Source: an uncultured Methanosarcinales archaeon
GTDB taxonomy: Archaea > Nanobdellota > Nanobdellia > Woesearchaeales > CAYMBN01
Assembly: GCA_964388715.1 (NCBI GenBank)
Contig: CAYMBN010000001.1
Span: 138,962-202,961 of the forward strand
Reading direction: 5' to 3'
Length of the DNA stretch: 64,000 nt
Made by a program: the position numbers and the translations under genes
Part shown: in pieces, positions 30,178 through 49,074 of the stretch
How the letters are laid out: each line of letters starts with the position of its first letter
How positions within the stretch are numbered: position 1 is the stretch's first letter
The notes under the pieces: generated by a model
What the model was told of the DNA's origin: nothing
Seen by the model: the letters and a program-made list of their open reading frames with translations, nothing else
The model's database searches: none

Positions 30178-30247
30178 TATCTTTTCTAGTGTAATAATAT
30201 TTAAAAAGAGTTGGTGGTTATTAGAGGTTATTTAGGGGGTAATTAAG

Positions 30248-30907: not shown

Positions 30908-30908
30908 A

Positions 30909-31559: not shown

Positions 31560-31629
31560 CTTTTTTGTCCCACTTTCATCTTTTTCTTTTTGATTTTGTT
31601 TATATAGATTGAAATCTTAATAGTATTGT

Positions 31630-32031
31630 ATGAACTATTCTGGGACAGCTGATGATTATGTTAAAGAGAATTATATTTCTGGTATTGATGAAATTAAGAA
31701 AGCTATTCAGAATGTTTGTGAACCAATTTATCAAAGAACTTCTTCTTATCTTGAGAAATTAAAAGAATTAAAAAAAGATTTTACAGGTATTGCTGATAAA
31801 CATATGGAAAAAAAGTTTTTGCCAGATGGTTTGTTTGGTTATACATGGTTGAATGATGTCAAAATGGTTATTAATGAAAGTATTTCTTCTTATCAAAGTT
31901 TTAAAACTCAAGTGCATGAAGCAATTCATACTGAGTGGGAATATCAAACAAGAGTTTTAACAGAGTGGATGGTTAGTATTAAACAAGAAGTTAAGAAGTA
32001 TTTTAAGCAGAAGAAAGAGTATTTTAAGTAA
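31630..32031 (+). CDS. Hypothetical protein
   Basis: 133-aa ORF with upstream TATA. Confidence 0.6.
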   Translation: MNYSGTADDYVKENYISGIDEIKKAIQNVCEPIYQRTSSYLEKLKELKKDFTGIADKHMEKKFLPDGLFGYTWLNDVKMVINESISSYQSFKTQVHEAIHTEWEYQTRVLTEWMVSIKQEVKKYFKQKKEYFK

Positions 32032-32064
32032 GATTTTTAAAGAAAAAAGTGTTTTTCTGTGTTT

Positions 32065-32400
32065 ATGAGAATAAAAAAGTCTGGTAATAAGTATAAAGTT
32101 GAAAGTAGTAAGAAAGGTAAGTTCTATGATGTTGATCCTGATAAACCAAGTTGTACTTGTTTACATTATAAAATGAGGATGGCTAAGATTGGTGGAGCAT
32201 GTAAACATATTAAAGCTGTTCGGGAAAAGGTTGGGAAAAAACAGATGAAGAAAGGTAAAGGTATTGTTGAGTTTGTTCAAAAGAATAAAGAAGTTGATTC
32301 TGTTAAATTAATTGAAAAATTTGGAGAGAAAGTTGTTGATGACATGATACAAAATGGTGAATTAATTGAGTTTAAAGGAAAGATTAGGTTGATGGTATAA
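32065..32400 (+). CDS. SWIM zinc-finger protein
   Basis: YKVESS...CTC...ACKHI. Confidence 0.8.
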   Translation: MRIKKSGNKYKVESSKKGKFYDVDPDKPSCTCLHYKMRMAKIGGACKHIKAVREKVGKKQMKKGKGIVEFVQKNKEVDSVKLIEKFGEKVVDDMIQNGELIEFKGKIRLMV

Positions 32401-32595
32401 TTACTCATTATGTACCTTAATAAAATTCTCAAAACTTCTATCGTAAGTTGCTTCTGCGTCTTTTGGAAAACAACATGCAGGAAGTTCTTTTCTTTTTAGA
32501 TGAGAACGAAGACATTCGCAACAGATACCTTTTTTTGGGCAACCTTTGTATGTGCAATTGCAATGTTTTAGATTGTTTTGTTTTTGACAATTCAT
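32401..32595 (-). CDS. Small Cys-rich protein (DUF6485-like)
   Basis: CNCTY.GCPKKGICCECLRSH...LPACCF...TYDRS. Confidence 0.75.
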   Translation of the reverse strand: MNCQKQNNLKHCNCTYKGCPKKGICCECLRSHLKRKELPACCFPKDAEATYDRSFENFIKVHNE

Positions 32596-33497
32596 TTTAA
32601 ATTTGCAACACACTTTTCATAATCTGCTTTGACTTCTTTGAAATAATCGTAAGCTTCTACTGCTTCTGGTGAGTTACCTAAACCTTGATTAATTTTCTCT
32701 GTGTATTTATTATAAACATCAACATATTCTTGGTAAAGTTTTTGACAATCTGTTTTTGCTGTTGTTGTGGTTGTTGTGATTTGTTTTTGAGGTTGTTCTT
32801 TGTTAAGAGGTTTGAATGATTGTACTATATTGTTGATGGTTTTAAGATGTATGTAATAAGTTTTTTCTAATGCAGTGTAAGTTATGATATAAGCAAAATC
32901 TCCCTCAATCATATAATATTGTGCTTGTTTTAATTGTTGTCCACCTTGGTTTGATGTAAATTCTAAGACTTTGTATTTAAGGTCTCCTGAAGAAAATCCT
33001 CCTGTAGTTACAAGATGGTAATTTGGAATTACTTCAGCAAGTTGTTCTTCACTTAGTTCAACATATTCTTCAAGAGTGATTGGTTGTTCTAGTTTTTGTG
33101 AAGCAATATTAAAGTTTTCAATGAATTCATCTTGTTCAGGACTTATGAAAGCAATTACTACACCCATGCCAGGATTTTCTTTATAATCCCAGTCATAAGG
33201 ATATTCTATTGAGAATTGATATTCAAAATTTTCATAATAACCATTTTTGCTTTTGTAAGGTTGTTGTTTCATATTTATTGTATTTTGACTCGTATTATAA
33301 CCAATTATTCCAATTAAGATGAAGAGAAAAAATATAACTCCAATAACAATGAAAAAGTTTCTTATGAAATGGTGTTTTTTCTTTGCACGAACCCAAACTG
33401 TATCTTGTTTTTTGGTTTTGCTTACTTTTTTACCACAATCAGGACAGAATCCGTCATCAGCTTTGATCTTTGCACCGCAATCATCACAATATGCCAT
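32592..33497 (-). CDS. Zinc-ribbon + TM + PsbP/DcrB-like exported domain protein
   Basis: CDDCG...FCPDCG, TM helix, FSIEYPYDW, AYIITYTA. Confidence 0.75.
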   Translation of the reverse strand: MAYCDDCGAKIKADDGFCPDCGKKVSKTKKQDTVWVRAKKKHHFIRNFFIVIGVIFFLFILIGIIGYNTSQNTINMKQQPYKSKNGYYENFEYQFSIEYPYDWDYKENPGMGVVIAFISPEQDEFIENFNIASQKLEQPITLEEYVELSEEQLAEVIPNYHLVTTGGFSSGDLKYKVLEFTSNQGGQQLKQAQYYMIEGDFAYIITYTALEKTYYIHLKTINNIVQSFKPLNKEQPQKQITTTTTTAKTDCQKLYQEYVDVYNKYTEKINQGLGNSPEAVEAYDYFKEVKADYEKCVANLK

Positions 33498-33560
33498 TAT
33501 ATCAACCTCTTTTATAGGTATGTTTATTGAATTAAAGTATATAAAGGTTACTATTAAGAA

Positions 33561-34070
33561 TTATTTCTTTGTTACTTTTTCAAATTCTTTTTCAACTGCA
33601 TCCTCAGAAGTAGGTTTTTCAACTGGTTTTGGTTGTTCAACCTTTTTTTCTGTTGGTTTTTCTTCTGTTTTCTTTTCTTCCTTGGTTTCAGCTTTCTCTT
33701 CTTTCTTAGGCTTATCTTTAACACCAAGCTTTTCTTTTGCTTTTTCTATTGCTGTTTTTTCTTTTTTCTCTTCTTTTTTAACATCAACATATTTGTGACC
33801 AAATAATTCTACTTTAACAACACCATCATCATCTTTAGTAACATTAATTTTAACATGATGTGGTGGATTCTTAATACCATGTTTCCATAAGTGTAAATTA
33901 AGCTGTTTACCTATTTTAAATTTATATTTGCCATCTTTATCTAGTCCTGGTTTCATGTGTTTGATTAAGAATTGTCTTAGAGCTGTGACTGCTTTCTTTG
34001 CTCTTTTATACTTTGGAGCTTTAAGCCATTCTCTTCTTAGTGGGACATTGTATGTTCTTTCTAACATCAT
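33561..34070 (-). CDS. rpl31e: 50S ribosomal protein L31e with K/E-rich C-terminal extension
   Basis: ERTYNVPLRR...KRAKKAV...LWKHGIKNPP. Confidence 0.95.
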   Translation of the reverse strand: MMLERTYNVPLRREWLKAPKYKRAKKAVTALRQFLIKHMKPGLDKDGKYKFKIGKQLNLHLWKHGIKNPPHHVKINVTKDDDGVVKVELFGHKYVDVKKEEKKEKTAIEKAKEKLGVKDKPKKEEKAETKEEKKTEEKPTEKKVEQPKPVEKPTSEDAVEKEFEKVTKK

Positions 34071-34072
34071 AA

Positions 34073-34246
34073 TCACGCTTTTGTTTTGGTTCTACGCCAA
34101 CTCCTTTTTTTAGTAGTATGTCTACCAGGATGAACTCTTCTGCCTGTGCCGTATATCTTTGGCACTGTCCAGAAAGGCGCCCATCTAGTTTGTTTATTTT
34201 TTTTTGCTAATCTTAATTTTCTTGACTTATGTTTGTATCGTGCCAT
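34073..34246 (-). CDS. rpl39e: 50S ribosomal protein L39e (57 aa, not in ORF track)
   Basis: Manual translation MARYKHKSRKLRLAKKNKQTRWAPFW...KRSWRRTKTKA. Lies between S19e and L31e. Confidence 0.92.
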   Translation of the reverse strand: MARYKHKSRKLRLAKKNKQTRWAPFWTVPKIYGTGRRVHPGRHTTKKRSWRRTKTKA

Positions 34247-34248
34247 TT

Positions 34249-34947
34249 TTATTCTGTCTTTTTAGGTTCTTCTTTTACTTGCTTTTTTACTTCAGGGCTT
34301 TGAGGTTTTGTCTCTAATCCCTTAGAAGCTTTTGGCTTCTGAGATTTAGGTTCAACCTTTTTTTCTTCTTTTGGTTTCTCTACTGGTTTTTCTTCTACCT
34401 TAGGTTTTTCCTGTTTAACTTCTGCTTTCTTTTCTTCTTTTGGTTTTTCTTCTACGCTTTGAGGTTTTGTCTCTAATCCCTCAGAAACCTTTGGTTTCTG
34501 AGATTTAGGTTCTTCCTTCTTAGGTTGATGTTTTAATATTAATTTTGCAGCATTATCAAGTAATTCTTTACCTTGTTTAGTTATGATACGACCTTTGTGA
34601 ACTCCAATTGTGGTCTGTTTAACTAAAGTACTTTTTTCTAATTGTTGAAGAATTGTTCTTAGAATTTTTCCACCTGCTCTTCTTGTTGCATCAGGTTTAT
34701 GTCCTCTGTTTTTTCTTCCACCATACTTTGTTCTTAGTTTTGATACTCCAATTGGACCTAATTTTAGAACTGTTCTTAAAACAGATGCAGCTCTGATATA
34801 CCACCAATCATCTCTAAGAGGTTGTCTTTCTCTGTGAGTGCCTGTTTTAACAAAAATAGACCATTCTGGAGCTTTGATTATCTTTTTAAGGTCTTCAGCT
34901 GTCTGTTCTATTAAGTCATTTGCTGGAACATCATATATGTTTCTCAT
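34249..34947 (-). CDS. rps19e: 30S ribosomal protein S19e with repeat-containing K/E/P-rich tail
   Basis: PEWSIFVKTG.HRER.P...WWYIRAASVLR...YGGRKNRG. Confidence 0.97.
   Translation of the reverse strand: MRNIYDVPANDLIEQTAEDLKKIIKAPEWSIFVKTGTHRERQPLRDDWWYIRAASVLRTVLKLGPIGVSKLRTKYGGRKNRGHKPDATRRAGGKILRTILQQLEKSTLVKQTTIGVHKGRIITKQGKELLDNAAKLILKHQPKKEEPKSQKPKVSEGLETKPQSVEEKPKEEKKAEVKQEKPKVEEKPVEKPKEEKKVEPKSQKPKASKGLETKPQSPEVKKQVKEEPKKTE
34297..34353. repeat. 57-bp palindrome-containing repeat, copy A, in frame within rps19e
   Basis: 53/57 identical to 34456-34512. Hairpin CTTAGAAGCT-TTT-GGCTTCTGAG. Confidence 0.9.
34456..34512. repeat. 57-bp palindrome-containing repeat, copy B, in frame within rps19e
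   Basis: Perfect hairpin CTCAGAAACC-TTT-GGTTTCTGAG. Confidence 0.9.
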
Positions 34948-35053
34948 GTTTAATCCCTCTGAAATGTTTCATGCTTTGCAGCACTAGAACCTCTATTCAC
35001 ACATAGTGCTTTAGAGTGTTTTAAGCTAAATAATTAGGGGTTATTTATAAAGT

Positions 35054-35100
35054 TTTCGGCGAAGCCGAAACCGTTTAGAAATTTCAAAAAGGTTGTGGTT
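35054..35100. repeat. Intergenic palindromic repeat element
   Basis: TTTCGGC-GAA-GCCGAAA. Reverse complement shares AACCACAAC and ATTTCTAAACGGTTT with 42709-42747. Confidence 0.8.
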
Positions 35101-36387
35101 TCAACTATGTGGATGGCCATTATTACTTGAAGCAACATCAGGACCTTCTACTTTTGATTTAATTGCAGGAGATTGTTCAAGGAAATCTGTGTCTTTGTCA
35201 TAGATCTGTTTCATGAAATTAGCTAGTCCTGTGAAACCAGATGATTCTATTGCTTTCATTCCATGTATTGAATAGTTTCCTGAAGCAAAACAATTACTTG
35301 CGATTCTTAAGTATTCAATTGGTGTTAGTGGTTCAAGGACTCCATCACTAACTAACTTTTCAATACGAACAAGTTTACCATCTCTGATGTATGCTTTTTT
35401 TAATTCTTCAATTTCATCATCAGCTAAATTACGATCATCTAAAGAAGCCGCCTTTTTAACAATCTCATATCTATCTCCTTCAATATTTTCATCATTTGTA
35501 GCCCTTTGTATTATGTAAGATAATGAAAATAATTCTATAACTGTTAAATCAAAACTATCTTCTGTCTTTGATTTTGATTTGTAGATATTAATTACTCTTT
35601 CAAAAGTATCAAGAGCTTGCATTAGATCACCTTGGTCCATGTACATTAAACCAACATCAACAAGTCCTTTCGCGATTTTACTTTTTTCATAAATATCTTT
35701 TGCTTTCACTAAGTTAGGCTTACTTTCATTCATGTAAGAATCTGCTATCTCTTTAAGTTTAGTTATTATAAAATCCATATTTAACCCATATAACTCAGTT
35801 CTTTGATTTCTCTCTTCTTTTAATTCATCATTTTCATCAATAGTAATTATTCTTATTGGACTTGCATTAACAATCTCTAAAAATGTTTCTAATGCTTTAT
35901 AATATGTTTGAGTAGCTTTTTCTAGATCACCTTTCTCATGAGATGCAACTGCAATATTAAGATAATCTTCTGGAGGTAATGTGTTTCCTTGCTTTAGATG
36001 TTCCCATGCTTGTTCTGCAAGTTTTAAATCACCAGATTCAACTATTTTTTTGTAAAGTGTAAGAAGTTTTGGAAAAGACTCTTGGTTTACACTATAACAA
36101 TTCATTGCTCTTCTTAAATCTCCTCGTTCTTCCCAATCATCACCAAGGTTTTCGTAATCTATTGGGTTAAGAGTTTCCCAACCTACTTTTGGAGTTATTT
36201 GTTCAACTTTATCATACCATCCCTCTCCAGCACAAACAAAAAGTACTTCTTTAATTAGCGCGCTAACTTGATTATCAATAAGACCAAAATCTAAACCATC
36301 AAATGTAGCTCTTTTTGAAATATAATAAGCAATACCTTCTAAATCTTGTTGTTTAATTGGATCTAATATTTTAACCATAAATCTCAA
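35101..36387 (-). CDS. TPR-like alpha-helical repeat protein
   Basis: Repeated GD..kA...Y patterns. Confidence 0.65.
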   Translation of the reverse strand: MRFMVKILDPIKQQDLEGIAYYISKRATFDGLDFGLIDNQVSALIKEVLFVCAGEGWYDKVEQITPKVGWETLNPIDYENLGDDWEERGDLRRAMNCYSVNQESFPKLLTLYKKIVESGDLKLAEQAWEHLKQGNTLPPEDYLNIAVASHEKGDLEKATQTYYKALETFLEIVNASPIRIITIDENDELKEERNQRTELYGLNMDFIITKLKEIADSYMNESKPNLVKAKDIYEKSKIAKGLVDVGLMYMDQGDLMQALDTFERVINIYKSKSKTEDSFDLTVIELFSLSYIIQRATNDENIEGDRYEIVKKAASLDDRNLADDEIEELKKAYIRDGKLVRIEKLVSDGVLEPLTPIEYLRIASNCFASGNYSIHGMKAIESSGFTGLANFMKQIYDKDTDFLEQSPAIKSKVEGPDVASSNNGHPHS

Positions 36388-36520
36388 CCCCCACTTTAAC
36401 GGGAATAATTAAGGATTATTTATAAATATTTATCTACTGTAGGCTCTGAAACATAAAAATTTATAAAGGATAACTTAAACCCTTTTTGTAATATAATTAA
36501 TAAAAATGGAGGGGTTTAAT

Positions 36521-37696
36521 ATGACAAGAAAAATTATTCTATCATCAGAATCTGTGACTGAAGGACATCCAGATAAGATGTGTGATCTAATATCAGATGC
36601 AATTCTAGATGATGCTTTAAGACAAGATCCAATGAGCAGAGTGGCTATTGAATGTGGTGCAAAGAACGGTGGTGTGATGGTATTTGGAGAGATGACTACA
36701 AAAGGTTATGTGGATGTGCCTGCTATTACAAGAAGTACAATTAAAAATATTGGATACACAAAATCTGAATATGGAATTGAATATGAAACATGTTCTGTTT
36801 GGACACAGATAACAGAGCAAAGTCCAAATATTGCACAAGGCGTTTCTGAAGGGGAAGGTTTGCATAAAGAACAAGGTGCTGGAGATCAAGGTATGATGTT
36901 TGGTTATGCATGTAATGAAACTCCAGAGTTTATGCCATTGCCAATCATGATGGCTCACAAACTTACAATGAGATTAGCAGAAGCAAGAAAAAAAGGAGAA
37001 ATTCTATGGTTAAGGCCTGATGGAAAAAGCCAGGTTAGTGTTGAATATGATCAAGAAGGTAAACCATTAAGAATTTCTGCAGTTGTTATCTCAACACAGC
37101 ATGAAGGAGATATTAAACATGATCAAATAAAGCAAGAGATTACTGAGAAAGTTATTAAACCTGTTTGTAAGGAATGGCTTGATGAAAATACTGTGTTGCA
37201 TGTTAACCCAACTGGTTCATTTGTACGTGGTGGACCTTATGCTGATGCAGGTTTGACAGGAAGAAAGATTATTGTAGATACTTATGGTGGATTAGGAAGA
37301 CACGGTGGTGGATGTTTTAGTGGAAAAGATCCTACTAAAGTTGATAGAAGTGCTGCTTATGCTTCAAGATATGCTGCTAAGAACGTTGTTGCAGCTGGTC
37401 TTGCAAGTAAATGTGAAATTCAATTAGCATATGCTATTGGTGTTGCTGAACCTGTTTCAGTTAATGTTAATTGTTTTGGAACTAATAATATACCTGAAGA
37501 AAAAATTTCAGAATTAGTTAGACAACATTTCCCTTTAAAACCTGCAGCTATTCTAGATAAATTAAAATTGAGAAGACCTATCTATAAAAAGACTGCTAGT
37601 TATGGACATTTTGGTAGGAATGATCCTGACTTTACATGGGAAAAAGTAGATATGGTAGATGTTCTGAGAAAAGAAGCTGGTCTTGGAGATCAGTAA
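36521..37696 (+). CDS. metK: S-adenosylmethionine synthetase (bacterial/eukaryal type)
   Basis: [49 protein letters not shown]. Confidence 0.98.
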
Positions 37697-37761
37697 TTTT
37701 TTACTTTTTCTTTTTTATTTTCCAAAAGCTTTATAAATTAAAATAAAATTCTAAACAACAT

Positions 37762-37924
37762 GCCTCCATAGCTTAGTGGTTCGAGCGTGCGGCTGTTACT
37801 TCAGCTTCGCTGAAGATCTACAAAAGCGAAGCTTTTGAAGAAACCGCAAGGTCACCAGTTCAAATATCAAACTGTGTTTGATGCATTCAAAAAGCGCAGT
37901 TTTTTGAAAGTCTGGTTGGAGGCG
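37762..37924 (+). tRNA. tRNA-Asn(GTT) with two introns: 37/38 (37799-37842) and 59/60 (37865-37910)
   Basis: Spliced: GCCTCCA TA GCTT AGTGGTTC GAGC G TGCGG CT GTT AA CCGCA AGGTC ACCAG TTCAAAT CTGGT TGGAGGC G. T-loop intron has a TTCA/TGAA central helix with 3-nt bulges. Confidence 0.92.
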
Positions 37925-37970
37925 TTTTTTCTTCATAAGATTTATATATGAATATATTTTTATTTATTGT

Positions 37971-38465
37971 ATGAATGTTGCATTATTGATAACGTGGTTA
38001 AGGATTGTTTTGACACCTTTTGTTTTTGTATTTGTTATTTTGGAGAATTATATTTTAGCTGTTGTATTTTTTATAATTGCTGCACTGACTGATATGGTTG
38101 ATGGTTATTTTGCAAGAAGATTAAAGCAGGAAACTAAGTTAGGAAAAATTCTTGATCCTGTTGCAGATAAGGTTCTTATTGCATTTACAGTGGTTGCGCT
38201 AACTGTTAAATTTAGAGAGTTGTTGCCTCTTACAATATTGATAGTAGGAAAAGAGATTGTTATGTTATTATGTATGGTATTTTCTAAGTGGAATGTTAAA
38301 TTTAAATTTCCTACAATATTATCAAAAGTTAATACAGTTGTGCAGATTATTTTTATTGTGTCAGTAATATTAGGATATTATAACACAATATTTTTGTGGA
38401 TTGTTTTTTGTTTAACATTAATAACTGCTATTGATTATTTGATTAAGCTTATGAGGAATAAATAA
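37971..38465 (+). CDS. CDP-alcohol phosphatidyltransferase (PgsA-like)
   Basis: DMVDGYFARR...GKILDPVADK. Confidence 0.92.
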   Translation: MNVALLITWLRIVLTPFVFVFVILENYILAVVFFIIAALTDMVDGYFARRLKQETKLGKILDPVADKVLIAFTVVALTVKFRELLPLTILIVGKEIVMLLCMVFSKWNVKFKFPTILSKVNTVVQIIFIVSVILGYYNTIFLWIVFCLTLITAIDYLIKLMRNK

Positions 38466-38466
38466 A

Positions 38467-39012
38467 ATGTGGTATTTTATACTTCAATGCGTGTATTTAA
38501 TTTTACCAGGTATATTTGCCAATTTAATGCCTGTCTTGGTTATGCCTTATTTTAAAAGACTTGCAATACCTGTTGATCTTGGGAAAAAGGTTTTTGGAAA
38601 AAGAGTCTTTGGTGATAACAAAACTTATAGAGGTTTTGTGTTTGGTGTTTTAATTTCAATCATAGTGGTATATGGACAGGGTTATTTGTATAATTATGAT
38701 TTGTTTATAAATCTTAGTTTTATTGACTATTCAAATATTAATTTGTTATTGTTAGGATTTTTGATTGGATTTGGTGTTTTATTTGGTGATCTGATTGAAA
38801 GTTTTTTCAAGAGGCAGTTGAATATTAAACCAGGAGAATCATTTTTTCCTTTTGACCAATTAGATTGTTTAGTTGGTGGTTTGGTTTTTGTTTTGTTTGT
38901 TTATGTTCCAAGTTGGAAGATTATTGTAACACTGTTTGTTTTGGTTTTAGTCATACATGTTCTGATTAAACACATACTGTATTACTTAGGGTTAACAAAT
39001 AAGAAGTGGTAA
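38467..39012 (+). CDS. carS: CDP-archaeol synthase
   Basis: ANLMPV, PVDLG, GDNKTYRG, GDLIESFFKRQ, DQLD. Confidence 0.88.
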   Translation: MWYFILQCVYLILPGIFANLMPVLVMPYFKRLAIPVDLGKKVFGKRVFGDNKTYRGFVFGVLISIIVVYGQGYLYNYDLFINLSFIDYSNINLLLLGFLIGFGVLFGDLIESFFKRQLNIKPGESFFPFDQLDCLVGGLVFVLFVYVPSWKIIVTLFVLVLVIHVLIKHILYYLGLTNKKW

Positions 39013-39795
39013 TTATTTCTTATATAGAATACTGATTGTTTCATTATGAGCTGCTTTCCATAATGTTGTAACAGTTGTAATCATGATTGGAATTAGTTCG
39101 TGGTGAACTCTTGCTCTTACACGTTTCCAACCATATTTAATATAATCATCATATATTCCTAATTCAAAAACTTTTTTAGCTTGTTTTTCTAAATATTCTT
39201 TTACTTTGTCTGTGTGAAACTTTTTTATTTTGGGAGAAATAAAACGTTTGTCAACATGGCCAGAGTGCATTTTTCTGAATAAGTAGTATAAGAAAACTCT
39301 TGTTTCAAATAATCCGTGGTTTCGTGTGATATTTCTTATAGGGTGAATCTCTTCTAACCAGTAAGGATCAAACCAATCTTCAAAGTCACTTACTCTAAAT
39401 TTCTTTTTTTTGTATCGGCCTGTTTGATGTGCTGGATTTAATGCATCAACTGCAAAATGTGACATAAATGCTGCATAACGTGCTGCTTTGCCAAATTTTG
39501 TTCTTTGTTTTGTAAGTTCTTTTACAAGAAGGTTGTAGTATTTTTGTGTTATAATACATGCTTTTCCAAGTTTGTTTTCTGGATTGTAACAGTGCCAAGA
39601 ATATTTACTTTTTTGTTTAAAAGATATTGCATCAGGGCCAACTGTTCCAGAATACATGTTAATCTTAAAGTAATTTGGAAATAGTTTGTTTTTTGTTAAA
39701 TGACGAAAAATTAGTTTGTAGGCTTTTTTGTTGATTTTCTGATGAGTACCATAAACATTGAAATCCAGGTTTTTTATTTTTAGGTAGCTGAACAT
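39013..39795 (-). CDS. Zinc-dependent phospholipase C/S1-P1 nuclease superfamily protein
   Basis: THQKI, GPD, H, SHFAVDALNPAH, HGLFE metal ligands. Confidence 0.7.
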   Translation of the reverse strand: MFSYLKIKNLDFNVYGTHQKINKKAYKLIFRHLTKNKLFPNYFKINMYSGTVGPDAISFKQKSKYSWHCYNPENKLGKACIITQKYYNLLVKELTKQRTKFGKAARYAAFMSHFAVDALNPAHQTGRYKKKKFRVSDFEDWFDPYWLEEIHPIRNITRNHGLFETRVFLYYLFRKMHSGHVDKRFISPKIKKFHTDKVKEYLEKQAKKVFELGIYDDYIKYGWKRVRARVHHELIPIMITTVTTLWKAAHNETISILYKK

Positions 39796-39796
39796 T

Positions 39797-40249
39797 TTAT
39801 ATCAAAAATAATATTATTGCGATAATGATGTACCAAACATATTTGATTACAGTTTTAATTGGATTCTTATTTTGGTAGCAGAGTAATGTGCCAAAAGGTA
39901 GGCCTAGTAAAAAGATTAGTGAAGAGATAATTAGGAAGTAATTTAATTGTTTTGAGCTGAGGTAAAAAATGATTCCTAATAGGATCCAGGTTATAATGTC
40001 ATTATATTGTTTTATTAATCTGAGTGATATGGTTAGAATAATGATTATTGTTAGAAAGATGTAATTTTTGGTTAGGAAAAGATGGTAAAGGATGATTAGT
40101 ATGATAGAAACGAGTAATATTCTGTAAAAAAAGACAATATACTTTTTTCCTGGCTTAAGTTCTTCAGGAGATATCTTTGCAAGAGCAATACCTATGAAGA
40201 TACTTAAGAAAGTTATGATGAGAGTGGATATGTAGTTGATTATGTTCAT
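39797..40249 (-). CDS. Membrane protein
   Basis: Highly hydrophobic, PEELKPGKKY loop. Confidence 0.65.
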   Translation of the reverse strand: MNIINYISTLIITFLSIFIGIALAKISPEELKPGKKYIVFFYRILLVSIILIILYHLFLTKNYIFLTIIIILTISLRLIKQYNDIITWILLGIIFYLSSKQLNYFLIISSLIFLLGLPFGTLLCYQNKNPIKTVIKYVWYIIIAIILFLI

Positions 40250-40341
40250 GTGAGAAGAGAAGAGTTTGGAGTATAAAAAGGTTTTGGGATATATGTTCTA
40301 GACTATAAAAATATAAAAAAGGGATAGGATTCTAATGAAGT

Positions 40342-40743
40342 ATGAAAAGAGTGTTTTACTTATTATTGTTTGTGTTTACTTTTGCATTATTGTACTATAT
40401 TTTTCTAAATGATCCACATATTAGTATGGAAAAATTTAAAGCTGATCCTTTAAAATATGAGGGAGAAATATTTCAGGTTACTGGGAAAGTTGGAGTGGTT
40501 GTTGATGGTAAGTTTTATTTTGATGATAAACATTTGATTATTGGAAGTGATGTTGAGGCTGCAAAAGGTGGTGTGACAAAGTTAAAATTGTTGGTTAAAG
40601 ATAGTAAGTTGTATTTGTTGGATTATCATAATCATGATTATTTGAATTTTGAGATTGGATTATCTGTTTTTGCTCTTTTGATTGCGCTGGTTTACTTTTT
40701 TAGAGAGTGGAAAGTCACATTAAGAGGTTTTGAATATGCCTGA
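40342..40743 (+). CDS. Membrane protein with OB-fold-like loop
   Basis: TM helices at both ends, DPLKYEG...VTGKV. Confidence 0.55.
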   Translation: MKRVFYLLLFVFTFALLYYIFLNDPHISMEKFKADPLKYEGEIFQVTGKVGVVVDGKFYFDDKHLIIGSDVEAAKGGVTKLKLLVKDSKLYLLDYHNHDYLNFEIGLSVFALLIALVYFFREWKVTLRGFEYA

Positions 40744-41197
40744 TTTGTTAAGTCATTTACTAGTTGGATTGATATTGTGCGAATTTTTGAAGGTTAAGAG
40801 AAAGTCACTTCTTCTTATAGGTTCATTACTACCAGATTTGTTAGGTAAGTTGTATGTGATTGGCTTTGTAACTAAAATCCCTTATAATTTATCTGATATT
40901 ACATATTATTTTCATACTCCTTTGATGTGTACTTTGGCAATATTGTTGATTATACCATTGTTTAAAGGGAAAAATGTGTTTTTTTCATTTTTTATAGGAG
41001 CGATGATGCATTTTGGGTTTGATATTTTTCAACAACATTTTATTGGAGGTACATTGTTAGGAGTGCCTTTCTTTTATAGATTGTACAGGTTTAATCTTAT
41101 ATGGCCTGGAGAATATTATTACTTTTTGATACCACTGTTTATTATTTATATTATTATTAAAACAGCTTCTTTAAAGTGTCCACACAAAACAACATGA
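40736..41197 (+). CDS. Membrane-bound metal-dependent hydrolase (YdjM-like)
   Basis: MPDLLSH, GSLLPDL, FHTP, HFGFD. Confidence 0.8.
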   Translation: MPDLLSHLLVGLILCEFLKVKRKSLLLIGSLLPDLLGKLYVIGFVTKIPYNLSDITYYFHTPLMCTLAILLIIPLFKGKNVFFSFFIGAMMHFGFDIFQQHFIGGTLLGVPFFYRLYRFNLIWPGEYYYFLIPLFIIYIIIKTASLKCPHKTT

Positions 41198-41876
41198 TTG
41201 CTTGGGTTTGTTGTCTTGAAGGAAGAAATGTTGTTTGTTTTTTATGAACAGAATTAATTCTAATATTGTTAATAAGATGGATTTGTTCTGTGACGCCTGG
41301 ATCAAATTTAACACTGAGTTCTTTAAGTTTTGCAATAAGTTTGCCTGCGCCAAGGTTTGGACTTGTTTCCAAAAGGTCTTTTTTTGTTAGTTCATAGTAT
41401 TTTCTATGTAAAGCTGTTTCAAGTATCCTGCCGCATAAGATAAGAGCTGAACGGTAACATTGGTTATCAAAACATTTTTGTGCTTCTTTAATGTCAAGTT
41501 GGATTTCGTCTTTAATTGAAGTAGGAAGGTTAGGTAGTTTGAGTTGTAATGATTTGTTTTTTGGTAAAAGGTGTTGGATTTCTTCAATTATGTCAAGTTT
41601 TTCTGTGTTAGAAATGTCTTGTGTTAATAAGCTAAGTTTTTCAAAGTCAAGTTTTTTAAGATTTTCAAGGTCATTCTGTAAATGAGACAATATTGATTTT
41701 ACTTCGTCAAATGATTTGTGAAAGTTTTTCTTATAAAGTTCAAGTTTTCTTGATTTAAAGTCATAAAGTTCTGGATTGACATTACTGCTAAGCTCTACTT
41801 TTTGAAAAGATGCGCTTGTTAGAATCTTTTTTAGTTCTCCTAGTTTCTGGTAGAGTTTTTCTAATGAGTTTTGCAT
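41157..41876 (-). CDS. DUF4145/HEPN-domain protein
   Basis: EAQKCF...YRSALILCGRILE, RINSVH (Rx4H). Confidence 0.8.
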   Translation of the reverse strand: MQNSLEKLYQKLGELKKILTSASFQKVELSSNVNPELYDFKSRKLELYKKNFHKSFDEVKSILSHLQNDLENLKKLDFEKLSLLTQDISNTEKLDIIEEIQHLLPKNKSLQLKLPNLPTSIKDEIQLDIKEAQKCFDNQCYRSALILCGRILETALHRKYYELTKKDLLETSPNLGAGKLIAKLKELSVKFDPGVTEQIHLINNIRINSVHKKQTTFLPSRQQTQAIMLFCVDTLKKLF

Positions 41877-41909
41877 ATCATGTTTGGGAGATTTAGATGT
41901 TTAAATGTT

Positions 41910-42010
41910 TTTCGGCAGAGCCGAAACTCTTTGAAATTTGTTTCAAATTTCTAAGATGCTCAGAAACGCTTTGCGTTTCTGACACGTTTAGAAAAAGAAT
42001 TTTTTCTAAA
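41910..42010. repeat. Composite array of four short hairpins (palindromic repeat family)
   Basis: TTTCGGC-AGA-GCCGAAA, TTTGAAA-TTTG-TTTCAAA, TCAGAAACGC-TTT-GCGTTTCTGA, TTTAGAAAAA-GAAT-TTTTTCTAAA. Confidence 0.9.
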
Positions 42011-42064
42011 AGTTTTCTATATTTGCTAAATATTTATAAAGTTATGTGGATTTTGGAATTTAAA

Positions 42065-42466
42065 ATGGAACCTTGGGAAGAATATATAGAGAAACTAGAA
42101 GATATTTATGTAAATAATCGAGTTTTTGGATCTCAGTTAGAGAATGCTATTAAGAGCATGTTGAAGTTTGCATTAAGAAAGGGTGATCCTTGTCAAGTGA
42201 ATTCAAAGTTAGCAACACTTTTTGATCCTGTGGTCAATGCGTTAGTGTATGTTGATCTTGCTATTGCAAGATATAAAGTAAAACCTCCTGAAGAAGGAAC
42301 TATTGTTTATGATTTTGTTGTTGGTGATAAACATTTTGAGGTTGAAGTGTATCATAAGGATCTGGAGGCGCATAGAGAAGCTCTTATAGATTATATCAAC
42401 AGTTCTTTAGAAATAGGTAAAGCAATATTAAATGATTATAATGACCAAGAGATTAGTAGACCTTAA
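42065..42466 (+). CDS. Hypothetical protein
   Basis: ATG 42065 lies about 25 nt below TTTATAAA. The longer upstream extension runs through the repeat. Confidence 0.6.
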   Translation: MEPWEEYIEKLEDIYVNNRVFGSQLENAIKSMLKFALRKGDPCQVNSKLATLFDPVVNALVYVDLAIARYKVKPPEEGTIVYDFVVGDKHFEVEVYHKDLEAHREALIDYINSSLEIGKAILNDYNDQEISRP

Positions 42467-42665
42467 CACCCTTTTCTTCAAGTTTATGTTTGAGAATTTG
42501 ATCTTTGCGCCATTTTTCAATGAAGTCCTGGATTATTTTAACGCAGAGTTTTGCTCTTGATCCGTATATGCCCTCTTTTTTGACAATCTTGTCTAGTTCA
42601 TCACATAATGGTTGTGGTAGGTTGATTGCCTTGTAACGGCCGAGTCTTTTGTGTTTTGATGGCAT
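42453..42665 (-). CDS. Ribbon-helix-helix (CopG/NikR-like) protein
   Basis: YKAINLPQPLCDELDKIVK...YGSRA. Confidence 0.65.
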   Translation of the reverse strand: MPSKHKRLGRYKAINLPQPLCDELDKIVKKEGIYGSRAKLCVKIIQDFIEKWRKDQILKHKLEEKGVKVY

Positions 42666-42708
42666 TTTGATAGAGTATGGATTTTTTAGTATATATAATT
42701 TATGTTTT

Positions 42709-42770
42709 AACCACAACTTTTAGAAATCAGAGATTTCTAAACGGTTTGAAAATTCCTAAAAATTTCCAAA
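42709..42770. repeat. Intergenic palindromic repeat element upstream of cdc6
   Basis: TTTAGAAATC-AGA-GATTTCTAAA plus imperfect TTTGAAAATT...AATTTCCAAA. Confidence 0.8.
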
Positions 42771-42804
42771 ACTTTTAAAAATAAGTTGAATATTAAGAAG
42801 AGAT

Positions 42805-43875
42805 ATGGGGATGTTTAAAGATATGTTACATAGTGATGAATCACTTTTTACTAATGTTCTTTCTCTTGAGTATGATTTTGTTCCTAAATTAATACCTTAC
42901 AGAGAAAAACAACAAAAACATATTGCAATGTGTATTAAACCATTGTTTAATAACAGAAATGGAAGGAATCTTTTGTTGCATGGTTTGCCTGGAATAGGTA
43001 AAACAGTAGCGTGTAAACATTTGTTTAATGAGCTTGAAGATGAGACAGAGGAAATTGTTCCAATGTACATCAATTGTTGGAAACATAATTCTTCGTATAA
43101 GATTGCAACTGTGATTTGTGAGTTGCTTGGGTATAAAATGACTATGAACAAAAAAACCGATGAGTTGTTTGATATTGCAACAAAAATTTTAAATAAAAAG
43201 TCTGCTGTTTTTTGTTTTGATGAGATTGATAAGTTAGAGGATTTTGATTTTCTTTATCATATCCTGGAAAATATTTACAGGAAAACTATTATCTTGATTT
43301 CTAATTATAAAGAATGGTTTGCTAAGATTGATGAACGGATTAAGTCAAGACTTACTGCTGAATTATTAGAGTTTAAGCCGTATAATAAAGTGGAAACAGA
43401 TGGGATTCTTAAGGAAAGGATTAAGTATGGTTTTGTACCTGGTGTTTGGGAAGAGAATGCATTATCAATTATTGTTGATAAAGCGTTTGAGTTAAAAGAT
43501 GTTAGAAGTGGATTGTATTTGTTAAAAGAAAGTGGAACAATTGCAGAAGATCATTCATCAAGAAAAATAAATATTTCACATGTTAAAAAAGCAATTGAAA
43601 AACTTGATGAGTTTACAATTAATGATCCTGAACAATTGAAGGATGAGCAAAAATTGATTTTTGAGATTGTGAAAGATAATTCTGGGAATAAGATTGGTGA
43701 TTTGTTTAAGGTTTACACTACAAAAGGTGGAAAACGTTCATATAAATCATTTCATAGAATGATTAAGAAACTTGAAAAAGATAGGTTTGTTAGTTTAACA
43801 AAGGTAACTGGCAAAGAAGGTAATACAACAATTGTAAAATATTCTGGCGAAGATAAGAAGTTGACTGAGTTTTAA
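42805..43875 (+). CDS. cdc6: Orc1/Cdc6 family AAA+ replication initiator
   Basis: DFVPKLIPYREKQ, GLPGIGKT, YINCW, FDEID, RIKSRL, FKPY, C-terminal wHTH. Confidence 0.9.
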   Translation: MGMFKDMLHSDESLFTNVLSLEYDFVPKLIPYREKQQKHIAMCIKPLFNNRNGRNLLLHGLPGIGKTVACKHLFNELEDETEEIVPMYINCWKHNSSYKIATVICELLGYKMTMNKKTDELFDIATKILNKKSAVFCFDEIDKLEDFDFLYHILENIYRKTIILISNYKEWFAKIDERIKSRLTAELLEFKPYNKVETDGILKERIKYGFVPGVWEENALSIIVDKAFELKDVRSGLYLLKESGTIAEDHSSRKINISHVKKAIEKLDEFTINDPEQLKDEQKLIFEIVKDNSGNKIGDLFKVYTTKGGKRSYKSFHRMIKKLEKDRFVSLTKVTGKEGNTTIVKYSGEDKKLTEF

Positions 43876-44678
43876 TTTTTTTGTTTAAATAAATAGGACA
43901 CATTACCTTGTTCTTTTCTTTTGCTTGTCCTTTTTGTACTTCCTCCTTTTAAACTATCTGCTTCATCTAGTAAGCTAGTTACAAAATCAATTTCATTTCT
44001 TGGACATTTAACTAATACATTTGCTGTGTCCTGGTCTAAATAAAAATGGAAAAAGTAATCAGCATTATTTATTGTTATTTGAACTTTACCTTCAGTAGGG
44101 ATAATGGTGTTATCACTCCCAACTTTAATTCCAGGAAGATCAGATGGAGTTTCTCCAACTAAAAATACTCTACCGCCCATGGATCTTAATTTTTGATATA
44201 ATTTTCCAAGATCTTTGGATTTGGAATATTCTTTTTCGATTTGTACGTAATCTAGTTGTGCACTTTCTAATAAATTATCTATAAATCCTATTTTTCTTGG
44301 GTCATTTTCAACAGAAACAGTAACTTTAAGTCCATCATCATTAAGTGGTTCAAAAGAAACTTTATAAACAGAGTTATTCACTAATGCATCAAATTCTCCT
44401 TTAATTAAATATAAAGAATCTGAAGGTCCTTCCATAATAGGATCTCCATAAATATCATCTCTATAATCACGACTTATACCATATTCAATACGTTTGCTAA
44501 TACATACAAAATAATCCCATATTGTTTTTGCTGCATGATCTGCAGACCAATATTTTTGAACACGCACAATTCTATCAGAAGTTGATGGATAAACATTAGA
44601 ACCATACATATGCTCACGAAGAATTTTATTGATACATGATCTTAAACTATTATCTTTTGAGCCACTACCCTTAACCAT
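43872..44678 (-). CDS. Hypothetical protein
   Basis: 268-aa ORF with RBS GAGGT. Confidence 0.65.
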   Translation of the reverse strand: MVKGSGSKDNSLRSCINKILREHMYGSNVYPSTSDRIVRVQKYWSADHAAKTIWDYFVCISKRIEYGISRDYRDDIYGDPIMEGPSDSLYLIKGEFDALVNNSVYKVSFEPLNDDGLKVTVSVENDPRKIGFIDNLLESAQLDYVQIEKEYSKSKDLGKLYQKLRSMGGRVFLVGETPSDLPGIKVGSDNTIIPTEGKVQITINNADYFFHFYLDQDTANVLVKCPRNEIDFVTSLLDEADSLKGGSTKRTSKRKEQGNVSYLFKQKN

Positions 44679-44744
44679 TCTTTATACCTCTCTTCAAGAA
44701 TAATTAGGTAGAGTGAACTATTTAAATTTTTTTATTCTGTAGAC

Positions 44745-44869
44745 ATGCATAGTGCCATGCCTGTAAAAAATACAAAAACTTGTTGTTGAATTTGTAAGTG
44801 TTTTTGACACTATTGTTTTACAATACGAATAACTATTTTTTACAAAAAGATGGCACAGACACTATGCAT
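44745..44869. repeat. 125-bp element with nested inverted repeats (MITE-like or structured ncRNA)
   Basis: ATGCATAGTG/CACTATGCAT, GTGCCAT/ATGGCAC, TGTAAAAAATA/TATTTTTTACA plus two inner hairpins. Confidence 0.7.
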
Positions 44870-44886
44870 ATTTTATTTTTGAGAAG

Positions 44887-46830
44887 TTAAATGTTTTTGA
44901 AGAATTCAATTATTTCACTTAAGAAAATGTAAATTTTTTGGAAAAATGTTAAATTGACAAGTTTTATTTTTACTTGTTCGCTTGTTAAGTGATTATTACC
45001 ATATTTGTCTGTGTATTTTATTGTTACATTGTATATGTTTTCATTAAAACCAAGTTCTTTACCAATCATTTTAACTTTAATGTCTTTGTTTTTAGAAAGT
45101 TGGTCAACTAATAAAACTTCCTCTTTATTAAAAAGTATAGTTAAATTATAAGGGTTTGATAATGATTGTTTTTCAACTCTAAAGTTAACATCAAATTCTT
45201 GATTAAATTCAACTTCAGTAGGAAAATCTAAGTTATTTATTTCAATAAGAGGTTCGTCTAAAACAAAGTATTCAACATAAGATGCTTTTGAGACATCTTT
45301 ATTTTTTATTGTTATTTTAAATTGATCTTTGCCTGTTTTATTGAATGAAATAGGAAATGAATGTTCTTTTGTCTGGCCAATTGTTAAGTTAAGTTTTTCA
45401 CAATGTTTAAAACAAAGATTAAGATTCTTTAATTCAACATTGCCTTTGTTTGCTATGTTACAAGTCATAAAATGTGTTTCATATATGTAAAATTCTGTTG
45501 GTGAAACAGTGCAATCAAGTTCAATATCTTTTGAAAATTGTTTTGTTTCTTCTTCGTATTTTTGTGAGATGATTCCTGAAATATCTTCCCTGGTAAGCAT
45601 TATTTCTCCGTGTTGTGAAGTAAAATTAACTGTTGAATTGATATGAGCAGAGTAAACTTGTACAGGGAATGTGTAAATAAAACCTTTACTTAATTCATCA
45701 CTTACTTTTATTATCCAGTAAAAGGATTTTTCTTGACCTGGTTTTAGTAAAATATGTTTTCTATTTTCACCTTCAATTGTTAATTGGTCTGTGTTTGCTA
45801 CATTAATTGTGATAGGAAGGTAATAGTTTTCTTTGTTAACTATTCTTGCTTCAAGAAGATTATAGGATCCAAGGCCAACTGTTTCTTTGTTTGTGTAAAG
45901 TTCAAATTTAAAAGGTGTTGGAACAATGTTACCTTTTTGAATTTCATTAACTGTGATGTTTAATTCTTTTGTTTTTATGTCTACATTGTAAGCTTTCCAT
46001 TCATAATTTGTTGTAGATTCGTCTGAGTCAATTGATTCTTTTAATTTAATATGTGAAACATCAATAAAACCAAATTGGTTATAAGTAACATCAAATGGAA
46101 TCCAAGCGTTGTCTATGTAAACTTCTGCCCATGCGTGTGGGCCCCACTTATCATTAATATTTGTGTAAGCCATACCACTAATGTATTTTGCTGGAATGTT
46201 TAATGATCTTAATAGTGCAATGAAAAGGTTTGTTAGTTCATCACAAACACCATATCTTTTTTCTAAGACCCAGGATGCCTTCTGTACAACTTTTTCTGTT
46301 GAAGTTGTAAGATCATATTTGATATTTTCTTCAACCCATTTTGCAATCTCAAAAACAACTGAGTAAAGATCTGAATCACCTGCTGCAAGTGCATTTGCAA
46401 GTTTAATTACCTCTTTGTGATTTGAGTCAATGTAAGTAGAAGGTTTAGTGTATTTCTGATGTTGTTGTGATTCAACTGGGAATTTAATTTTTTTTGTTAT
46501 TTTTGGTGTTTTATCAGTTACCTTGACAATTGAATGTAGGTTATAAGAAAGGTTATTTTCTTCAGGAGAATCCCATTTAAAATAAATATAACTATCTTCT
46601 CTAGTTGAGGAAGGATTTGTTGTAAGTGTAATTATGTTTTGGGTTAATGTTGATCTTGGAAAAAAAGTTAAGTTAGCTGCCATATAATTGATTGAAGCAC
46701 CAGGTTCCCGAATAAGTGTAAAGTCAGAACCAATGTTAATGTCCATCCTTAAAGAGTCTCTGTTAGAATAGTCAGTTGCAATAGCCATAGGTACAAGAAG
46801 TAATAATATCAGTATCATCTCTTTTTTCAT
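44887..46830 (-). CDS. Secreted transglutaminase-like domain protein
   Basis: Signal peptide, GVCDELTNLFIALLRSLNIPA, HAWAEVY, WIPFDVT. Confidence 0.9.
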   Translation of the reverse strand: MKKEMILILLLLVPMAIATDYSNRDSLRMDINIGSDFTLIREPGASINYMAANLTFFPRSTLTQNIITLTTNPSSTREDSYIYFKWDSPEENNLSYNLHSIVKVTDKTPKITKKIKFPVESQQHQKYTKPSTYIDSNHKEVIKLANALAAGDSDLYSVVFEIAKWVEENIKYDLTTSTEKVVQKASWVLEKRYGVCDELTNLFIALLRSLNIPAKYISGMAYTNINDKWGPHAWAEVYIDNAWIPFDVTYNQFGFIDVSHIKLKESIDSDESTTNYEWKAYNVDIKTKELNITVNEIQKGNIVPTPFKFELYTNKETVGLGSYNLLEARIVNKENYYLPITINVANTDQLTIEGENRKHILLKPGQEKSFYWIIKVSDELSKGFIYTFPVQVYSAHINSTVNFTSQHGEIMLTREDISGIISQKYEEETKQFSKDIELDCTVSPTEFYIYETHFMTCNIANKGNVELKNLNLCFKHCEKLNLTIGQTKEHSFPISFNKTGKDQFKITIKNKDVSKASYVEYFVLDEPLIEINNLDFPTEVEFNQEFDVNFRVEKQSLSNPYNLTILFNKEEVLLVDQLSKNKDIKVKMIGKELGFNENIYNVTIKYTDKYGNNHLTSEQVKIKLVNLTFFQKIYIFLSEIIEFFKNI

Positions 46831-46926
46831 GGAAAAGGTTAATATAAAGGAATATTTAAGTGTTTTGAAAAAATTTATAAATAAATTAAGATTTTAGGAT
46901 AAAAGGTGTTTGGATTTCTGTAGAAA

Positions 46927-47922: not shown

Positions 47923-47927
47923 CAAGA

Positions 47928-49031: not shown

Positions 49032-49074
49032 ATAAATTTTTAAATCATTGATTATTTGTTCTAGATGGGGGAAT

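Follow-up and report, generated by a model that had tools for sequence, protein, structure and literature searches.

The stretch of DNA analyzed here (64,000 nt, hereafter the window; G000 C1:138962-202961) is part of contig CAYMBN010000001.1 (C1; other contigs are cited in the same way) of an uncultured archaeon of the order Woesearchaeales (GCA_964388715.1). The assembly comprises 1.30 Mb in 31 contigs with 31% G+C and is 95.75% complete. Matches to its proteins (names as given in the sources) assign it to DPANN archaea of the Woesearchaeota/Nanoarchaeota type. This genome is the sole representative of its own family and genus in the genome collection, and all comparator genomes belong to the same order and to different families. 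The window carries a set of short DNA palindromes, able to form hairpins, which lie immediately upstream of the ribosomal protein gene rps19e, a DUF4145 gene, and a Cdc6-lid AAA+ gene, and also inside the rps19e coding sequence. An initial annotation, made from the letters of the window, had described a dispersed modular family of such palindromes, and all the sequences that it quoted were found where it had placed them. Genes were called with a crude open reading frame (ORF) caller (ATG starts, ≥70 aa, greedy), so that all distances to gene starts given below are approximate. The window stretch is contained in eight DNA sequencing runs, with no RNA run listed; contigs from four runs over positions 30001-50000 are of low depth, are identical to the window, and show no joint at a hairpin. 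Variants at 41980 and 42000 were rejected as polymorphisms, as they match the paralogous copy on C3 and represent cross-mapping.

The rps19e gene is read from the minus strand, and its promoter contains the hairpin TTTCGGC-GAA-GCCGAAA (35054..35070, minus strand; predicted fold -6.4 kcal/mol), whose 3' arm GCCGAAAA is the predicted B recognition element (BRE) of the gene. This hairpin abuts the TATA box CTTTATAAATAA (35041..35051, minus-strand reading), and upstream of it lies the remnant AACCACAAC-CTTTTTGAAATTTCTAAACGG (35071..35100, minus strand), an TTTAGAAA-type unit in collapsed form, which the family linker connects to the BRE hairpin. The reverse complement of 35068-35100 does share sequence with 42709-42747, as had been noticed: AACCACAAC is found at 42709-42717 (complement 35092-35100) and ATTTCTAAACGGTTT at 42733-42747. 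The DUF4145 gene (41157-41876) is preceded by a four-hairpin composite of 112 nt (41907..42018), which recurs with high identity at C3:52952 and C3:98911. It contains the BRE hairpin TTTCGGC-AGA-GCCGAAA (41910..41926, minus strand), which abuts the TATA-like CATTTAAACA of the DUF4145 gene and whose start is 50 nt from the ATG. Its other three hairpins, assigned to neither strand, are H2 (TCTTTGAAATTTG-TTT-CAAATTTCTAAGA, 41928..41956), H3 (TCAGAAACGC-TTT-GCGTTTCTGA, 41960..41982, fold -10 kcal/mol), and H4 (TTTAGAAAAA-GAAT-TTTTTCTAAA, 41987..42010). H2 and H3 together are the two-hairpin core that was found across the order. The third array (42709-42770) starts with AACCACAAC (42709..42717, plus strand) as a BRE-position motif before an TTTTAGAAA arm. 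It is followed by the hairpin TTTAGAAATC-AGA-GATTTCTAAA (42719..42741; -6.3 kcal/mol, z = -5.7) and the imperfect hairpin TTTGAAAATT-CCTAAA-AATTTCCAAA (42745..42770), neither assigned to a strand; the end of the latter abuts CTTTTAAAAATA, the TATA-like box of the Cdc6-lid AAA+ gene, with 35 nt from the array end to the ATG. This array is located between the AAA+/Cdc6-lid gene (42805-43875, plus strand; Orc1/Cdc6-like, 356 aa) and a gene at 42453-42665 (minus strand), the 70-aa product of which has no Pfam match and looks ribbon-helix-helix-like by eye.

Genome-wide, the family consists of short (17-31 bp), AT-rich, near-perfect DNA palindromes with the arm grammar (C/T)T(C/T)(A/T/C)G(A/G)AA...TT(C/T)C...AG/AA, and the unit types seen are TTTAGAAA, TTTGGAAA, CTCAGAAA, and TTTCGRC. 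Units follow one another head to tail with linkers of 1-4 nt, often cGG. An array ends with a final arm at the BRE position (GYCGAAAA or TTTCYAAAAC), a TATA box 0-3 nt farther on, and a start codon ~31-36 nt beyond the array/TATA junction. On the 5' side of the TTTCGRC hairpins there are one to three palindromes of the TTTAGAAA, TTTGGAAA, or TCAGAAA type, joined by short linkers such as cGG. The opposite strand of the junction TTTCTAAA-cgG-TTTCGAC reads as a BRE plus the TATA-like TTTAGAAA, and AACCACAAC stands directly before true TATA boxes at three other promoters and before TTTTAGAAA at both window loci; because of these readings, the units look like inverted pairs of promoter words.

The dispersed modular family was borne out by genome-wide counts, which are well above those of shuffled sequence. 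There are 70 perfect hairpins with a stem of ≥10 bp in the genome, compared with 19.1±3.8 in 10 dinucleotide shuffles of it, and 125 intergenic palindromes with ≥10 matched pairs and ≤1 mismatch, compared with 29.2±6.0 in 20 shuffles of the intergenic regions. The pattern TTTCGRC-N3-GYCGAAA has 12 sites here, while the reversed control pattern has none and 40 genomes of the same order have none; two of the 12 sites, located where C15 ends and where C27 starts, give the same reading and probably represent a single locus. Among 40 TTTRRRAA...TTYYYAAA pairs with perfect palindromic outer octamers, 32 have at least two more nested pairs, against an expectation of ~4.4 (32 was reached in 0 of 2000 shuffles), and these carry 16 distinct interior stems. 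Folding energies of -6.2 to -10 kcal/mol are predicted for single units as single-stranded DNA, and -26.1 kcal/mol (z = -6.6) for DNA of the 101-nt composite stretch 41905-42005. Of 59 loosely defined arrays, 18 have two units, three have three, and three have four. The palindrome observation is thus real and statistically strong, with the exception of a proposed link to tRNA introns (see below). The GCGAAGC mini-hairpin, which the initial annotation had mentioned for its unusual stability, is not a trait of the family, as the loops vary among the 12 TTTCGRC copies (GAA twice, TTT three times, TAT twice, and AGA, AAA, TAA, CCT, and TCC).

The core promoter of archaea consists of a BRE and a TATA box, which are bound by TFB and TBP. 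The usual promoter of this genome reads aaaa(C/G)CGAAA, 1-5 nt, and TTTATAAA (67 sites), with an ATG ~37-40 nt past the C of CGAAA at 23 of the 67 sites; we take this CGAAA-TATA layout to be the archaeal BRE plus TATA box. Of the 12 TTTCGRC hairpins, 11 have their right arm, GYCGAAA(A), at the BRE position with a TATA box immediately after it, and in the twelfth this arm is followed by TTTTAGAAA. The distance from hairpin start to ATG is 49-67 nt in nine of the 11 protein genes that follow TTTCGRC hairpins and longer at rps19e (123 nt) and C10:9767 (107 nt). Because their right arm occupies the BRE position before a TATA box, the hairpins at 35054 and 41910 read as palindromised BREs; at these predicted promoters, the BRE and the right arm of the GC-rich triloop hairpin are one and the same.

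The same register was observed for the family as a whole. A strong array was defined as one with at least two units, one unit with ≥10 pairs, or a TTTCGRC unit, and its placement was compared with that of equal-length segments placed at random in intergenic DNA (1000 trials). A TATA-like octamer lies 0-3 nt from an end of 27 of the 39 strong arrays, compared with 3.9±1.8 for random placement (27 was reached in 0/1000 trials). A gene start lies 31-36 nt from the array end in 13/39 (2.4±1.5; 0/1000 trials) and 31-64 nt from it in 25/39 (10.1±2.8). By setting, 15 strong arrays are located between divergent starts, 19 between a gene end and a start, two between convergent ends, and three at contig ends. 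The genes behind arrays include those for S19e, L34e, L10e, S6e, two aminoacyl-tRNA synthetases, SRP54, a Nop-domain protein, SAH hydrolase, iPGM, ScpA, and an AAA ATPase, and at least three tRNA genes (identified by eye or with ARAGORN). The arrays are docked at promoters in register and are not randomly scattered, a feature that is absent from the initial annotation. While the 3' arm of the final hairpin agrees with this genome's BRE in sequence and spacing, a BRE that forms the arm of a perfect palindrome behind further palindromes is extra with respect to the archaeal promoter as described, and no published report of a palindromic BRE with upstream palindromes was found in the literature searched.

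The units are also copied as larger blocks. The 112-nt composite stands before three unrelated genes (DUF4145, DUF1385, and iPGM) and the similarity ends at the composite edges, and blocks of 55-112 nt are found again, loops and linkers included, with 85-95% identity at loci that are unrelated and in further lineages. The covariance-model (CM) scan that the initial annotation had proposed was run with a model of the 66-nt core (CM R1, built from six intergenic copies; 34 candidates per genome scored), and the core was found across the order: this genome has 32 matches at E≤1, and 87 of 149 other genomes of the order have matches at E≤0.01, with up to at least 33 per genome. The pattern TTTAGAAA-N5-11-TTTCTAAA-N1-4-GTTT has 23 strand matches here and one to three in four of 150 other genomes; these four (from three other families; G131 is unpublished) have two hairpins, TATA, ~25 nt, and ATG, and their sequences differ. 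On three metagenome contigs the H2-H3 core has 88-93% nucleotide identity over 70 nt to the copies of this genome, and the flanking genes match on two of the three, at 51-57% protein identity, with loci that are not orthologous. One of these metagenome arrays has six hairpins before an AMP/thymidine-phosphorylase-like gene (by eye), the orthologue of which is separated here from its upstream gene by a 16-nt spacer with no array.

At the orthologous rps19e promoter, none of 27 same-order relatives has a family hairpin beside the TATA box. Neither outcome named beforehand as refuting the family, shuffle-level counts or hairpins conserved at orthologous sites, occurred. In the relative G020 the core is located in a repeat with at least 13 copies of 92-100% identity, several of them at contig ends, and in G071 and G074 it lies inside longer repeats, the G074 copy being flanked by inverted ends. 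In this genome the double-hairpin core lies inside the 178-nt copy C8:13611-13788, which ends 14 nt before the TATA box of S15P/S13e (by eye). A separate MITE-like (miniature inverted-repeat transposable element) family with 14-bp inverted ends GTGTGYATAGTGCC is seen at C8:13611-13788 and C2:149161-149287, and single GTGTGYATAGTGCC ends at C2:54873, C2:53025, C13:30055, and C8:40549.

Units that probably belong to the family are present in frame within protein genes. The C-terminal tail of rps19e contains two copies of a two-hairpin unit on the minus strand, copy 2 at 34457..34513 (peptide PKSQKPKVSEGLETKPQS) and copy 1 at 34297..34353 (PKSQKPKASKGLETKPQS), which extend over 57 nt and are 93% identical. 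The hairpin of copy 2 is CTCAGAAACC-TTT-GGTTTCTGAG (34480-34502, minus strand; quoted earlier as TCAGAAACC-TTT-GGTTTCTGA, 34481-34501; fold -9.2 kcal/mol), while that of copy 1 is degenerate with one mismatch; between the two, one A:T pair has become G:C at the cost of a Val-to-Ala change. A desulfoferrodoxin gene outside the window, at a distance of 98 kb, has 33 nt in common with the rps19e tail (91% identity, E 1.8e-5). All three in-frame copies encode KSQK..VSEGLETK.QS (the encoded peptides include SQKPKVSEGLETKPQS and SQKTSVSEGLETK), and all have lengths that are multiples of three and are located in tails or, in desulfoferrodoxin, in the linker between two domains, as an insert of 15 residues. 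This insert is absent in nine of nine aligned homologues; among 120 listed desulfoferrodoxin homologues 108 are 126-129 aa long, and its motif is found in one of the 119 others, a 99%-identical 143-aa variant. The peptide of the in-frame unit is found in three of 119 rps19e homologues, the total protein length of which ranges from 143 to 274 aa.

Read from the plus strand, the in-frame unit is TTTGAG..GTCTCTAA-tcc-CTCAGAAACC-ttt-GGTTTCTGAG-a-TTTAG, and its hairpin order and flanks (TCTAA-3nt-CTCAGAAAC...) are those of the intergenic H2-H3. The present analysis adds that one unit type carries the BRE, that the two-hairpin core extends over the order, and that intergenic and in-frame copies are probably linked. 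The pattern CTCAGAAR...YTTCTGAG is found in 20 of 400 other genomes, compared with two for a reversed control that was not matched to codon usage, and in Lys/Glu-rich tails it always encodes SQK..VSE. The carriers, with the motif in tails or linkers (names by eye), are L22, S3Ae, a ThiM-like kinase, and a wHTH-like protein; both hairpins are present in the ThiM-like copy, and a Nanoarchaeia metagenome-assembled genome carries the ThiM-like tail unit known from G347. A contig search with TTTCTGAGGGNTTAGRRAC gave 38 loci, nearly all bacterial by title (three were inspected), and the bacterial loci are taken for chance matches. Two candidate features of the in-frame units were rejected: the apparent target-site duplication at the desulfoferrodoxin insert, where the flanking AAATCTCA/AAGTCTCA belongs to hairpin arms, and an mRNA bulge-helix-bulge (BHB) intron, for which no 4-bp helix with 3-nt bulges was seen by eye. 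At C3:71037-71104 a two-hairpin unit at an operon junction has the same frame as the initial 23 codons of a membrane-protein ORF, the real start of which is probably the next ATG.

The initial annotation had assigned the family to three niches, of which the intergenic one and the in-frame tails were borne out and the tRNA introns were not. The tRNA at 37762..37925 (plus strand; GTT anticodon region, two introns) contains the hairpin CTTCAGC-TTC-GCTGAAG (37799-37815, plus strand) in its anticodon-loop intron and is not part of the palindrome family. Its stem differs from TTTCGGC at two of seven positions, which is within chance: CTTCAGC is the nearest non-promoter neighbour of TTTCGGC among 266 loop-3 hairpins, and since six of these are at distance 3 and 30 at distance 4, about one neighbour at distance 2 is expected by chance. 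The four compensatory changes that had been pointed out follow automatically when two perfect palindromes are compared, and CM R1 gave no match at E≤1 in the tRNA region (C1:176700-176900). ARAGORN called 37762-37925 a tRNA, with a 44-nt anticodon-loop intron, only after a T-loop segment of 44-48 nt had been removed in silico, and the call as Tyr/GTA or Asn/GTT depends on intron placement. The 3' ends of the T-loop introns (tttgaaag) are complementary to the T-loop exon (gttcaaat), which, read by eye, would be an ordinary BHB splice helix. The default ARAGORN run gave no tRNA in the window; with introns allowed, only 23 tRNAs were found in the 1.3-Mb genome, several of them doubtful, so that multi-intron tRNAs are probably common here. 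Further two-intron tRNA genes with one intron in the T-loop were seen at C1:249176-249387, C8:40986-41660, and C10:42072-42215.

We give an even chance to the interpretation that the family is a non-autonomous repeat similar to REP (repetitive extragenic palindromic), BIME (bacterial interspersed mosaic element), or RPE (Rickettsia palindromic element) sequences, which docks at promoters and supplies the BRE. The units would be non-autonomous repeat DNA of the REP/BIME/MITE kind, presumably spread by copy-and-insert or by recombination. Retention would be commonest at sites where a unit has inserted on the BRE side of a promoter or has restored it; either such DNA is what the units target by preference, or a palindrome that bears a BRE does no harm, or even some good, at this position. 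Occasionally they may persist in frame in disordered Lys/Glu-rich segments, as RPEs do in Rickettsia.

The likeness to REP/BIME and RPE sequences claimed for the family is right in kind. REP and BIME sequences of Enterobacteria and Pseudomonas are non-autonomous, short palindromic units of 20-35 nt, located between genes in mosaic arrays of two to four and in tens of copies, and their stems keep pairing while the sequences vary. The present family likewise consists of multi-copy intergenic palindromic units in mosaic arrays; it differs in the lack of a RAYT (REP-associated tyrosine transposase) gene, in AT-rich units, in a BRE/TATA register rather than a position after genes, and in its archaeal host. 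RPEs of ~100-150 nt are found between genes and in frame in unrelated genes, where they encode a hydrophilic peptide and leave the protein intact. Here, too, the repeat lies in frame in unrelated protein genes and is absent from homologues, while the unit is only 45-57 nt long, with only three in-frame copies in two genes, and these lie in disordered Lys/Glu-rich tails and a domain linker. Elements of the IS200/IS605 type have subterminal hairpins that are recognised by the Y1 transposase TnpA. Hairpin DNA is the unit here as well and stands beside two of four Y1 genes in the relative G139, but neither this genome nor G020 has a Y1 gene. Like prokaryotic MITEs (e.g., the Correia elements of Neisseria), the family is made of non-coding, hairpin-rich repeats near promoters, and the core lies inside inverted-end repeats in relatives and in one 178-nt copy here. 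Unlike MITEs, the window arrays are modular strings of separate small palindromes without definable inverted ends. The term RPE occurs in a MITE review (PMC10969869), and a bulk census of archaeal MITEs gives one Woesearchaea genome at 105 cMITEs/Mb (PMC11602168). In the literature searched, with subscription journals mostly outside its coverage, neither palindrome arrays docked at promoters nor hairpin repeats lying in frame are described for DPANN archaea.

Several observations weigh against a mobile repeat. That no mobilising enzyme is visible, as had been noted for the window, holds for the whole 95.75%-complete assembly: profile searches for four families, in which the positive controls were detected, gave no match to Y1/HUH (PF01797), the TnpB zinc ribbon (PF07282), DDE_Tnp_1 (PF01609), or Mutator (PF00872) in this genome. 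Neither the arrays nor the in-frame unit has definable terminal inverted repeats or target-site duplications, and no presence/absence polymorphism of arrays was seen among the low-depth contigs of other runs, which are uninformative on this point in either direction. Covariation in the TCAGAAA hairpin (10 copies, six genomes) is not significant, as only two pairs vary on both sides and 104-149 of 500 shuffles equal that. Since the comparators are from other families, the "empty" orthologous sites could reflect old divergence, and a core identity of 88-93% at ~55% protein identity could mean strong purifying selection and not transfer. The intergenic-trained CM scores the in-frame copies weakly (rps19e copy 2, E=0.0096; desulfoferrodoxin, E 0.25; both E-values are rough). 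Lastly, the fixed TATA register, the BRE content, and the housekeeping genes downstream would fit a regulatory role, which is weighed below, equally well.

A more specific proposal, which we hold tentatively, is that the family is hairpin-based mobile DNA with ends that mimic BRE and TATA (a portable BRE), so that every insertion would dock on a promoter or create one, and that its units would also sit in frame in the flexible tails of ribosomal and other proteins. An enzyme acting in trans would mobilise it, of the IS200 Y1 type in some lineages and of another type in others, including this genome. The initial annotation had pointed to RAYT/HUH nucleases, and this link found no counterpart here, as this genome has zero Y1 genes by the PF01797 profile and by tblastn (no match below E 1 with a relative's Y1 protein), although at 95.75% completeness this does not prove that the gene is absent. 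Elsewhere in the order, 56 of 149 other genomes have Y1 genes, and CM-positive genomes are 40 of 56 with Y1 compared with 47 of 93 without (Fisher p = 0.016, uncorrected for relatedness). Among genomes with ≥15 CM matches, Y1 is present in 6/16, which is the order-wide base rate, and the high-copy relative G020 has no Y1 gene. A CM-positive double hairpin lies within ~40 nt of two of the four Y1 genes examined in G139; these hairpins may simply sit at the tnpA promoter, because the similarity of the copies extends further upstream. None of 10 Y1 loci from 10 other genomes has a match of ≥24 bits within 100 nt, and one 24-bit match lies ~220 nt downstream of a Y1 gene in this set. The HUH link thus may hold but is not supported, the association with Y1 being weak overall and absent among high-copy genomes.

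The arrays could alternatively be lineage-specific cis-regulatory DNA, that is, operator or upstream-activating sequences for a dimeric or cruciform-binding factor or for TBP/TFB, which would tune strong housekeeping promoters and be copied via promoter duplication or gene conversion rather than transposition, with the in-frame copies as accidents of that recombination. We consider this possible, though we lean against it. Besides the register already mentioned, the genes downstream mostly have core housekeeping functions, the succession of two hairpins, TATA, ~25 nt, and ATG recurs with other sequences in four of 150 genomes, each junction reads on the other strand as a BRE plus the TATA-like TTTAGAAA, the motif AACCACAAC is found in front of true TATA boxes as well as of TTTTAGAAA, and conservation is much higher in the H2-H3 core than in the proteins encoded next to it, all of which is consistent with regulatory DNA. 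A half-site spacing that varies from 5 to 13 nt and 16 complementary, variable interiors fit a hairpin better than a rigid protein site, however, and the relatives' orthologous genes are without arrays, while copies are found in coding sequences, between convergent genes (C1:137389), and in the high-copy repeats of relatives.

The hairpins are improbable as bidirectional transcription terminators or insulators of a compact genome. It is true that arrays in tandem or convergent spacers start 2-18 nt past the upstream stop codon in at least 12 cases, that one array fills a 61-nt convergent spacer, and that every unit has T3-T6 runs on both strands, but 15 of the 39 strong arrays lie between divergent starts with no gene end, in-frame copies would terminate their own genes, and BRE hairpins and the 0-3-nt TATA abutment would be left unexplained. 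Quite improbable is an origin as a mutational by-product without function or mobility, in which template switching (snap-back replication) at AT-rich promoter DNA yields palindromes. This would account for perfect stems with arbitrary interiors and for arms that resemble local promoter words (BRE, TATA-like), and it is at odds with the 55-112-nt blocks shared with their loops and linkers across loci and lineages and with the ~50-nt unit common to two unrelated genes; uniqueness of every array outside its arms is already contradicted for the H2-H3 core. We regard as very improbable that the DNA repeats are copies of a small RNA gene, or of an RNA motif, represented by the conserved two-hairpin core. 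The 66-nt core does form two stable hairpins conserved in sequence order-wide, with a BRE and a TATA-like word upstream of the window copy. It matches on both strands because it is palindromic, however, and copies differ in how they are oriented to the nearest promoter. Covariation is not significant, the gathering score was not reached by any Rfam family in the window (best 23.5 bits vs 45), and three regions searched at E≤1 gave only sub-threshold chance matches to Rfam.

If the preferred reading of a promoter-docked, REP/BIME/RPE-like repeat is correct, DPANN archaea with small genomes would be using a single family of tiny palindromes to reshape their promoters as well as core-protein tails, and this would be a concrete system for how archaeal repeats choose promoters. 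The effect of a palindromic BRE on TFB/TBP loading or on promoter direction could be tested with it. Some of the hypervariable Lys/Glu-rich tails seen on the ribosomal proteins of this group would also be accounted for, and the reading would be a warning for annotation, as such hairpins would be neither terminators nor RNA genes.

Other features were seen around the main loci. The gene next to rps19e (33561-34076, minus strand; L31e by eye) encodes a long Lys/Glu-rich C-terminal tail without a family hairpin. The rps19e leader of ~90 nt (34948-35040, minus strand) contains the motif GGTTTAGAGGTTCTAaTGCCGCAAGGCAtG and a hairpin with a GCAA loop; motifs of the GGTTTAGAGGTTCTAaTGCCGCAAGGCAtG type recur before rps19e in many of the 27 relatives and have no Rfam match, and the leader appears to be of a ribosomal-protein type not described before. 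A second promoter class has the palindrome (T)CACT-N4-7-AGTG ~5 nt upstream of aaaaCCGAAA-TATA, and is found at ~61692 in the window (C1:200653) and at ~12 other sites, often distant from called ORFs.

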